Source: a virus | Virus record (IMG/VR): IMGVR_UViG_3300045988_128092 | Reading direction: 5' to 3' (one strand) | DNA: 45,911 nucleotides | In this document: positions 27,228 through 28,500 of the stretch, one piece after another | Position numbering within the stretch: position 1 is the stretch's first letter | Layout of the letters: every line of letters begins with the position of its first letter | Program-made: the position numbers and the translations under genes | The notes under the pieces: generated by a model | Told to the model about the DNA's origin: nothing | What the model saw: the letters and a program-made list of their open reading frames with translations, nothing else | Database searches by the model: none

Positions 27228-27854
27228 TTACCAGTCATCAGCGCTTTTACATGTTGGTGCAGTCAACTCTGCCATTATTTTACTTTCAATTAATGTCATC
27301 ATGTCATTACATCCATCTATTATTGCTCGTCTATAAAACCCCTCCCTTGCTGTTTTCATTTTCCCGTTGGGTTTGAAGCAAACTTCATAAGTGAGGGCTT
27401 CTGCTGGCCAATCAGCAGGGTTGAGGTATATGCCGTTTACTACCCCTCCAGGATAATGCCCCTTTATATCGTATATATCAATTTTATAGCGACCATCTTT
27501 TGTTTGGATTTTGAGGGTATACCAAACTTGAGCGGCTTGAACACCACCCATCAGACCGCGAGTAGGTACTTTTGAAAACCCCTTACAAACTAATATATGA
27601 GACTCCTTGTCCTCCATCTGGATGACGTCATTCGCAGAGTTGAATAATTCTGTTATACACAATCTTACTGAGTTGAATATTTTGTCTGCGTTACATTCGT
27701 TCGCTGAAACTATTTTCGAGAATACAACTCTACCATCCTCAGTAAACGGCATTTTGCCTTTGCCATATCTGTTTTGATCAGCCTCTTTGTCACTCTGGGC
27801 CAACATGGGGATTGCAAGAAAGAGTAAAGGAATAATGAGTAAAGTCTTCTTCAT
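27228..27854 (-). CDS. Secreted DUF4468-like protein
   Basis: Signal peptide MKKTLLIIPLLFLAIPMLAQS, then GKMPFTEDGRVVFSKIV... Confidence 0.6.
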   Translation of the reverse strand: MKKTLLIIPLLFLAIPMLAQSDKEADQNRYGKGKMPFTEDGRVVFSKIVSANECNADKIFNSVRLCITELFNSANDVIQMEDKESHILVCKGFSKVPTRGLMGGVQAAQVWYTLKIQTKDGRYKIDIYDIKGHYPGGVVNGIYLNPADWPAEALTYEVCFKPNGKMKTAREGFYRRAIIDGCNDMMTLIESKIMAELTAPTCKSADDW

Positions 27855-27855
27855 A

Positions 27856-28500
27856 TTATCCTATTTTATTCGACTTTTCAACATTGCATTTTTGGCAAAG
27901 CAACTGCATGTTCTCTAATGTAGTTGCCCCGCCTTTTGAAAAAGGTATGATGTGATCGAGTTGTAAGTTTTGTGTGGATCCGCAGTATACGCATCGGCCA
28001 CCATCACGCTTATATACTGCATCTACTATTTCCCTGGGAATTGGTGGCCGCTTTGGCTCATCACCGAATAGTTCTCCGCTGTCGATCAGTTCTTGCCGTA
28101 CGATTTTTTCAAGTTGACGTATACGGTATTTTTCTTTAATACGCGCTGCAATCTCGGCTTTTTCACGCTCTTCCTGTTCTTGTTGAAACAATATTCTCCG
28201 TCGTTCCTGCTCTTCTGCTGACAGGGAAGCTCGATGATAATCACCTGCCGCAAGGTATTTTTCTAACGATGTAATATTATCAAAATATACTTTTCGAGGA
28301 TTGATGCCCTGTTGTTGACCAACGATGCCAGCACTCTCTAATTGCATCATAATGCGCCCAGCCCGATTAAATCCAACTTCAAATTTTCGCTGAATTTCTG
28401 TTGTGGATATGCCTCCATTATTGACTGCATATCTTGCTACTTCCTCGAATAGCAAATCGTATTTTATGGGAGCTGGTTCTTCGAAGTAGTAATCCATCAT
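27856..28500 (-). CDS. FtsK-gamma winged-helix / coiled-coil / HNH nuclease fusion protein
   Basis: [29 protein letters not shown] (FtsK gamma pattern). C-terminal CVYCGS...[11 protein letters not shown]...[16 protein letters not shown] (HNH). Confidence 0.75.
   Translation of the reverse strand: [214 protein letters not shown]

Follow-up and report, generated by a model that had tools for sequence, protein, structure and literature searches.

The virus record IMGVR_UViG_3300045988_128092 of IMG/VR (45,911 nucleotides; hereafter the window, meaning that whole stretch of DNA) is a temperate Bacteroidota phage or prophage, and it encodes at 27856-28500, on the minus strand, a 214-amino acid (aa) protein in which a γ winged-helix domain of the FtsK type is followed by a long charged helix and a C-terminal HNH nuclease domain. 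Among single-protein nucleases that combine a DNA reader with an HNH domain, this FtsK_gamma-HNH fusion is an undescribed variant, lodged in a lysogeny-side cargo slot, and belongs to a large undescribed family. It is an optional cargo gene (or moron) tied to a repressor-like gene and not part of the core phage machinery, its catalytic and zinc residues are intact, mobile and defence genes are enriched around its homologues, and it shows no link to the DUF4468 gene that follows it, to the terminase or to the Xer-like recombinase of the phage. Judging from the sequence, we give roughly an even chance to the idea that it is a McrA-like, DNA-reader-guided nuclease directed against invaders, which would be co-expressed with the repressor. 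Our literature search found no paper describing an FtsK_gamma-HNH fusion, the only related report being that of a γ domain fused to a small terminase subunit (TerS) in Bacillus phages (PMC8190038).

Architecture of the fusion protein

The N-terminal part of the protein (aa 14-73; 28282-28461, minus strand) is recognised as an FtsK γ winged-helix domain, including its recognition helix, by profile search, by alignment and by superposition. It matches the Pfam family FtsK_gamma (PF09397) over profile positions 3-62 of 63 with an E value of 4.1e-20 (71.7 bits against a cut-off of 30.6), and the alignment with the γ domain of Escherichia coli FtsK (2j5p) extends through the recognition helix (GYNRAARIIEQME in the aligned pair). 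In an AlphaFold model of the fusion, which has a mean predicted local distance difference test score (pLDDT) of 81, the γ domain reaches 91-94 and superposes on 2j5p, 2j5o, 2ve8 and 2ve9 with target-normalised template modelling (TM) scores of 0.74-0.90 and root-mean-square deviations (rmsd) of 1.1-1.8 Å, 2ve9 being the form bound to FtsK-orienting polar sequences (KOPS). Neither the RecA-like motor of FtsK (FtsK_SpoIIIE, alpha/beta) nor its membrane domain was found by Pfam in the 214 residues, and there is no hydrophobic segment in the protein (the maximum Kyte-Doolittle value for a 19-residue stretch, taken on an identical copy, is 0.55).

At the other end (aa 170-212; 27865-27993, minus strand), the protein matches HNH (PF01844) with an E value of 3.1e-15, and HNH_5 with one of 1e-12. 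Both CxxC pairs and the D-H...N...N series are present (C170, C173, D182-H183, N197, C202, C205 and N206); in family alignments C170, C173, D182, N197 and C202 are invariant, while H183, C205 and N206 are invariant or nearly so. The nearest solved structures are the HNH domains of Cas9 and IscB, that of the Gme nicking enzyme (4h9d) and that of EcoKMcrA (6ghc). Between the two domains, a charged stretch of 47 residues (aa 95-141; 28078-28218, minus strand) is modelled as a single continuous helix, a probable coiled-coil or oligomerisation linker, whose C-terminal half belongs to the conserved core of the family. An earlier note on this DNA, made by reading the letters alone, had proposed precisely these three parts (an FtsK γ domain, a charged coiled coil and a complete HNH motif), and all three have stood up to profile search and structure prediction. 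A fold search of BFVD gave matches at the level of single domains, with no full-length analogue among them.

EcoKMcrA, which works as a dimer and is encoded on a prophage-like element, is also a single chain with an N-terminal DNA reader and a C-terminal HNH domain (PMC12707154). Like this type IV enzyme of the e14 element of E. coli K-12, and like the SRA-HNH and SBD-HNH proteins, the fusion combines in one polypeptide an N-terminal DNA reader with a C-terminal HNH domain of the Cas9/McrA type; the HNH domain of EcoKMcrA (6ghc_B) can be laid over its own across 68 columns (rmsd 2.9 Å, 28% identity), sequence similarity being confined to that domain. The two differ in that the reader of the fusion is an FtsK γ domain, with no match to NEco, SRA or SBD, that a 47-residue helix separates its two domains, and that nothing points to dependence on DNA modification.

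An optional gene tied to the repressor

At about 29.1-29.27 kb there is a divergent switch; leftward of it, the minus strand carries the structural, packaging and cargo genes, and its first genes are, in order, a repressor-like helix-turn-helix (HTH) gene, the fusion, the DUF4468 gene, a terminator, HicB/HicA, the same terminator again, TerS and the large terminase subunit (TerL). The repressor-like gene (28698-29084, minus strand; 128 aa) matches HTH_3 with an E value of 2e-4, finds regulators and repressors among the PHROGs and has a weak likeness to the RstR family. The fusion and the DUF4468 gene thus lie on the repressor strand, between the repressor-like gene and the packaging genes, as the earlier note had stated, and the lysogeny-side placement that it proposed holds.

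The accessory status of the fusion emerges from a comparison of close relatives, which were fetched with the LuxR-type regulator of the window as bait (37 viral contigs, all from the same phage group and matching at 95% identity or more, of which 35 cover the slot behind the repressor-like gene). The fusion (gene family c8) is the first cargo gene in 10 of these 35; the others carry in its place a 355-aa lipoprotein (c7, 11 contigs), a 327-aa secreted DUF4468 protein (c9, eight contigs), a 223-aa secreted protein (c13, four contigs) or something else (two contigs). One of the last two (L105:5187-6089) has a 300-aa NYN-domain gene (LabA-like nuclease), which is another nuclease-type cargo in this position. 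DNA homology of the fusion cassette breaks at 28504/28505, at the start codon, and at 27853, just past the stop codon. A repressor-like gene stands about 200 bp upstream in all 21 fusion-carrying loci that cover that side, and the fusion itself (97.7-100% identical, together with P0012, a relative at 81%) is found with differing repressor N-terminal halves, downstream genes and terminases. The repressor-like gene is itself mosaic, with at least three alternative N-terminal (HTH) halves (c2, c5 and c12) on a conserved C-terminal part of about 66 aa among contigs L104-L140, which resembles swapping of the immunity type.

The tie to repressors extends beyond this phage group. Bacteroides phage BS-TP3 has a homologous HNH gene that begins 8 nucleotides after an S24 LexA-type repressor in an integrase-side module; its product is 55% identical over aa 86-214 and differs in its N-terminus. 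In 7 of 24 family loci of the gut type the gene directly upstream encodes an S24 repressor, and HTH_3 or Rha/ORF6N regulators occur in further loci. In another contig (L158), the fusion sits at one end of a prophage, with the switch region on one side of it and the integrase on the other. The full-length fusion was not found among the INPHARED phage records, and megablast of the whole window returned only one partial relative. Prophage exclusion genes are known next to repressors, as in the case of lambda rexAB, BTP1 bstA and examples from mycobacteriophages. The fusion shares with rexAB and bstA its position (a slot that varies between related phages, on the repressor strand and directly behind the lysogeny repressor); the proteins are unrelated, and both expression of the fusion and exclusion by it are putative.

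Mobility of this kind could also mean that the gene is a selfish nuclease, either a free-standing HNH homing endonuclease or a promiscuous cassette, spreading from one related phage to another by cutting or recombining at the post-repressor slot, with no benefit to the lysogen. Such an interpretation, which we regard as unlikely, finds support in the sporadic occurrence of the fusion (10 of 35 close relatives), in homology boundaries that coincide with its start and stop, in its 97.7-100% identity across phages that differ in repressor type, downstream cargo and terminase, and in its PHROG matches, many phage HNH genes being homing endonucleases. However, no 'empty' allele was found among these relatives, the slot always holding some other cargo behind the same leader, which fits cassette exchange better than homing; paralogues have membrane helices or sit in bacterial islands beside abortive infection (Abi), restriction-modification or toxin-antitoxin genes; and the arrangement of an N-terminal reader, a coiled coil and a C-terminal HNH domain of the McrA/Cas9 type is unlike that of HNH_3/NUMOD homing enzymes, a typical HNH_3 gene being present elsewhere in the window (39132-39785, plus strand).

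The DUF4468 gene next door

Immediately behind the fusion lies a gene for a secreted 208-aa DUF4468 protein (27228-27854, minus strand). Its start codon is 1 nucleotide past the fusion stop (TAA-T-ATG), it matches Pfam DUF4468 with an E value of 2.2e-14 and phrog_4002 in PHROGs, and its N-terminus, read from the translation, resembles a signal peptide (MKKTLLIIPLLFLAIPMLAQ), all of which agrees with the earlier note. That note had further taken the two genes for one functional module, and here the relatives speak against it: DUF4468 follows the fusion in only two of the ten contigs that carry the latter, the remaining eight having an unrelated 185-aa membrane-type protein (c10). Conversely, the DUF4468-type gene c9 occupies the slot in its eight contigs in the company of no HNH gene at all, and the DUF4468 gene of the window is a separate homology block (27853-27183). 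With no recurrent partner in the wider family either, a dedicated functional pairing of the two proteins is rejected, and the DUF4468 gene is taken as an independent moron cargo that in this phage happens to lie behind the fusion.

Adjacency of DUF4468 genes to genes of the coil-HNH type is seen, for the record, in three unrelated lineages (27228-27854 of the window, L038:3564-5019 and L146:1668-2813). The second of these is an independent case of HNH followed by DUF4468, the DUF4468 protein being 31% identical to that of the window, and the third has two DUF4468 genes near the fusion. These cases may reflect either chance or a weak association.

Leader, terminators and likely expression

The fusion is preceded by a leader of 197 bp (28501-28697, minus strand) that is common to the relatives whatever their cargo; in the 35 loci its homology runs to 28504/28505, that is, to within 4-5 nucleotides of the cargo start codon. 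It contains a hairpin of 12 bp (28573-28600; folding energy -16.7 kcal/mol) that is followed by AAAAAUG and has no U-tract, as well as a 10-nucleotide relic of the cassette terminator (TGACCGGGGC, at about 28561-28570). Downstream of the repressor-like gene, no canonical terminator comes before that which follows DUF4468 (27183-27213, minus strand), an intrinsic terminator with an 8-bp GC stem and U6, which forms part of a 31-nucleotide repeat. This repeat has exactly two copies in the window (none expected by chance), the second (26453-26483, minus strand) lying after HicA and closing the HicB/HicA cassette. The DUF4468 and HicAB cassettes are separate modules joined at the repeat, whose two copies mark the cassette boundaries; in relatives that carry other cargo, one copy is present and both align to it. 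The earlier claim that each unit is bounded by copies of one terminator therefore stands for the two identical copies after DUF4468 and HicA, but not for the upstream side of the fusion, where only the 10-nucleotide fragment is present.

Promoters of the Bacteroidota type have a -7 element with the consensus TAnnTTTG, for which we searched with the pattern TANNTTTG. By this consensus, the minus strand between 27228 and 29270 has a single such motif, TATATTTG at 29209-29216, upstream of the repressor-like gene and with a divergent partner on the plus strand (29176-29183); the same scan found no promoter motif between the repressor-like gene and the fusion. A scan for promoters of the sigma-70 type stayed at or below chance level (11 found, 12.5 expected) and was not used. 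The repressor-like gene is thus probably the first gene of the transcription unit, and on this account the fusion would not belong to a self-contained two-gene operon, which the earlier note had assumed. The simplest reading of these motifs, to which the placement of homologues in other lineages lends support, is that in lysogens the repressor-like gene, the fusion and DUF4468 would all be read as one transcript.

No support for a part in packaging or for a link to the Xer-like recombinase

The vicinity of the terminase genes raises another possibility, namely that the fusion is a packaging accessory comparable to HK97 gp74, with the γ domain recognising the packaging site as was proposed for the γ-TerS proteins of phages Sam46 and Sam112. 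The fusion gene does lie upstream of TerS (25693-26208, minus strand) and TerL (24480-25760, minus strand), on the same strand; HK97 gp74, likewise a small phage HNH protein encoded upstream of terminase genes, stimulates cos cleavage (PMC9410871); and FtsK_gamma fused to TerS is known from Sam46/Sam112 (PMC8190038), such a fusion being seen also in our BFVD search. In that phage-borne γ domain outside FtsK, however, the partner is Terminase_2, and here it is HNH. Moreover, the fusion and TerS are separated by 1.6 kb holding two terminator-bounded cassettes, so that the fusion is not terminase-adjacent; nor is it co-conserved with the terminase. Five contigs (L104, L109, L118, L122 and L140) have TerS and TerL that are 99-100% identical to those of the window and no fusion, whereas an identical fusion co-occurs with TerS/TerL matches of 62%, 31%, 25% or undetectable. 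Homologues adjoin a repressor (BS-TP3) or an integrase (L158) and not a terminase, the fusion is absent from most close relatives, and Pfam assigns TerS to the P22 gp3 type (GP3_package) and TerL to the Terminase_3/3C type, neither being of the HK97 (cos) type. A packaging role, to which we would attach next to no probability, is essentially excluded by this distribution: the occurrence of the fusion with varied terminases and downstream genes, and its absence from terminase-identical relatives, rule out both a gp74-like function and a dedicated partnership with DUF4468.

Another proposed link, that to the Xer-like tyrosine recombinase of the phage (37545-38582, plus strand), does not hold. 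A 100% identical recombinase is present in six viral contigs of different contexts (L154 is the same contig as L119), none of which has the fusion within 10 kb; fusion-bearing relatives lack the recombinase, and one of the contigs with the recombinase is a fusion-less member of the same phage group.

The wider coil-HNH family

The C-terminal part of the protein, about 100 residues, is a conserved coil-HNH core that occurs joined to many different N-termini. In an exhaustive search, 187 cluster representatives reached E <= 1e-30; of the best 150, at least 34 align over both domains in one stretch. The use of a Flavobacteriaceae member as query gave 2973 proteins at E <= 1e-10. Full-length γ-HNH fusions are spread across Bacteroidota, among others in Bacteroides, Rikenellaceae, Parabacteroides, Chitinophagaceae, Flavobacteriaceae, Weeksellaceae, Sphingobacteriaceae and Hymenobacteraceae. 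In NCBI these proteins go by the names 'DNA translocase FtsK' or 'HNH endonuclease', the former of which is a misannotation.

N-termini were typed in 358 complete family proteins, a sample biased by the two queries used. A γ domain is present in 178 of them (154 with no hydrophobic helix and 24 with one), 84 have a hydrophobic helix and no γ domain, and 96 have neither; an N-terminal hydrophobic helix therefore occurs in 108 of the 358 (about 30%). In our judgement, the attachment of differing N-termini to one unchanging effector is an arrangement associated with conflict systems. The nuclease of the defence protein SNIPE is of the T5orf172 type. As a membrane-placed nuclease, SNIPE is comparable to the 108 members whose hydrophobic helix would place them at the inner membrane, and not to the protein of the window, and the fusion differs from it in having an HNH fold and no DUF4041, the domain that SNIPE carries as it cuts injected phage DNA at the inner membrane (PMC13190303).

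When the γ domain alone was used as query, 34 short γ-only proteins were returned and no genuine FtsK. Among free-standing FtsK_gamma open reading frames (ORFs), those from gut metagenomes (P0243-P0274) are 55-133 aa long and 50-66% identical to the γ domain of the window, and some may be fragments; free-standing γ ORFs of phages have no known role (PMC8190038).

Neighbourhoods were read for nine contexts of the fusion. Two are islands in which it stands with an integrase, a resolvase and DarT+Macro, or with an integrase, AntA and a CI-like HTH gene, AbiH being directly adjacent in the latter. In a third, the locus includes REase-ARP/PDDEXK_13, in a fourth AbiGi lies upstream and PIN_12+HTH downstream, and in a fifth (L146) a type IV methyl-directed restriction enzyme is directly adjacent (PADLOC E value 2.5e-51). 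The others are an integrase with a T5orf172/MUG113 gene, a phage region just downstream of the lysis genes, the prophage end next to an integrase mentioned above (L158) and one plain chromosomal locus. DarTG, AbiH, AbiGi or type IV restriction genes stand beside the fusion in five of the six environmental contexts first sampled. The homologues are thus found in moron, prophage lysogeny-module and defence-island contexts and not, as the earlier note had named as evidence against its own proposal, mainly in phage replication modules. No recurrent downstream partner was found in the wider family, 47 of 59 downstream proteins being singletons, and no conserved, tightly linked toxin-immunity or toxin-antitoxin partner was found among these 59 downstream neighbours and the ten relatives. 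From this small sample the fusion emerges as a mobile single gene associated with defence islands.

The γ domain and the chromosome-polarity code

What the γ domain of the fusion might read is best approached by comparison with FtsK/SpoIIIE γ, which reads KOPS or SpoIIIE recognition sequences (SRS) and activates XerD. The residues by which E. coli FtsK γ reads KOPS are reportedly N1296, R1300 and E1303. The fusion has the same fold (Pfam E value 4e-20) and its recognition helix keeps the Asn and Arg at the positions aligned with N1296 and R1300, but it lacks the motor and membrane domains, has a nuclease attached and has Met at the E1303 position, where P0012 has Thr and environmental fusions have Asp. 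Its recognition helix has indeed diverged from the canonical type; environmental fusions carry GYNRAGRLMDQLE. The known KOPS and SRS motifs occur in the window at chance level, a result that says little about a Bacteroidota motif.

One genome offers a detail relevant to the mechanism. In a Chitinophagaceae metagenome-assembled genome (L028; CANGOX010000007.1, 4176-7669), a γ-HNH fusion lies 71 nucleotides downstream of the host ftsK, whose product has the motor and membrane domains of a true FtsK. Over helices 1-3, the γ domains of the two proteins are identical at 47 of 47 residues, whereas 17 of the 141 underlying nucleotides differ, every change being synonymous; directly after this stretch identity falls to 14 of 34 residues, and before it there is no similarity. 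Identity of the protein in spite of synonymous divergence implies that selection keeps the reading surface of the fusion equal to that of the host translocase. In this single genome, the constraint could consist in recognition of the same DNA motif, or of the same protein partner, as FtsK.

Such a constraint allows a bolder idea, which at present strikes us as rather improbable: that γ-HNH proteins would be nucleases guided by the chromosome-polarity code of the host, using the same KOPS-type motif or Xer partner either to distinguish the resident chromosome from DNA that enters the cell or, in abortive infection, to break that chromosome down. The copy in the window, with its altered recognition helix, would then be a retargeted derivative. 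A related and similarly doubtful alternative to a defence nuclease is a role directed at the chromosome or at recombination, via KOPS-like motifs or Xer recombinases of the host (DNA processing at induction, host takeover or modulation of FtsK/Xer). The structural closeness of the γ domain to FtsK γ, including the KOPS-bound form, speaks in its favour, as do the 47 identical residues maintained through 17 synonymous changes and the presence of some family members among housekeeping genes. On the other side, a link to the Xer-like recombinase of the phage itself fails on co-occurrence, the fusion is dispensable for the phage group (25 of 35 relatives do without it), the γ helix of the window has diverged from the canonical type, the observation of constrained identity comes from a single genome, and the window is not enriched above chance in known KOPS/SRS motifs.

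A candidate anti-invader nuclease

How an anti-invader nuclease of this build would work can be outlined as follows. The fusion would be transcribed with the repressor-like gene in lysogens and its product, which is expected to be cytoplasmic, would dock through the FtsK γ winged helix on double-stranded DNA, probably at a short motif like KOPS. FtsK γ binds KOPS as a trimer, and in the fusion the long charged helix may bring protomers together, upon which the zinc-stabilised HNH site would nick or cut the bound DNA. The lysogen would thereby gain protection against incoming DNA, whether of superinfecting phages or of other mobile elements. Alternative N-termini, notably membrane anchors, would be alternative ways to aim the same nuclease, the reader being an exchangeable module. 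Co-transcription, oligomerisation, sequence-specific binding, nuclease activity and a defence phenotype are what we infer from the architecture and genomic setting described above.

Several points weigh against a defence role. The weakest point of the proposal is that a constitutive nuclease that binds a chromosomal motif needs self-protection, and no conserved partner or immunity gene was found. PADLOC-DB v2 gives generic matches only, to HNH domains at about 1e-9 (PDC-M01B at 3.5e-9, REase_II, PtuB and Cas9), and none for DUF4468, HicAB, the repressor-like gene or the downstream gene c10. The neighbourhood evidence consists of nine fusion contexts, a small sample with no background control set, and the placing of the promoter uses the consensus motif only. 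Finally, three family members (P0064, P0099 and P0202) stand alone among housekeeping genes, two of them being of the membrane type and γ-less, so that the family may have a cellular role other than defence.

Were the fusion a defence nuclease, a large and mis-annotated Bacteroidota family would join the single-protein nucleases directed against invaders, and the post-repressor slot of common gut Bacteroides prophages would be a hotspot of lysogenic conversion and defence. The swappable N-termini (FtsK γ, membrane anchor and others) on one coil-HNH core amount to a natural experiment in nuclease aiming, and the γ domain that in one genome is identical to that of FtsK suggests, as a testable idea, that nuclease targeting may have taken over a reader of chromosome-polarity motifs. 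If the polarity code is indeed what is read, this would be a principle of self/non-self discrimination that is based neither on modification, nor on guide RNAs, nor on DNA ends.

Other features of the window

The left end of the window carries an Arm-DNA-binding tyrosine integrase (224-1348). Between the DUF4468 gene and TerS lies the HicB-like/HicA toxin-antitoxin cassette (26502-27097, minus strand), which has a TATATTTG motif of its own (27120-27127) and is present in only some of the relatives.

The early genes, which run rightward from the switch, include a LuxR/GerE regulator, a tRNA-Gln with anticodon TTG (32615-32687, plus strand), ERF, a second tyrosine recombinase (the Xer-like one), a methylase fragment and the HNH_3 gene. 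Behind the Xer-like recombinase come a short N6_Mtase-like ORF and the HNH_3 gene, and the whole region (37545-39785) may be a mobile or shufflon-like module; in one contig (L156) four paralogues, 30-33% identical, stand in tandem. The LuxR-type regulator is closely followed by a 315-aa ORF (30495-31442, plus strand) that consists almost entirely of tandem Cys-rich repeats of the form GxECELGxxCKLG.

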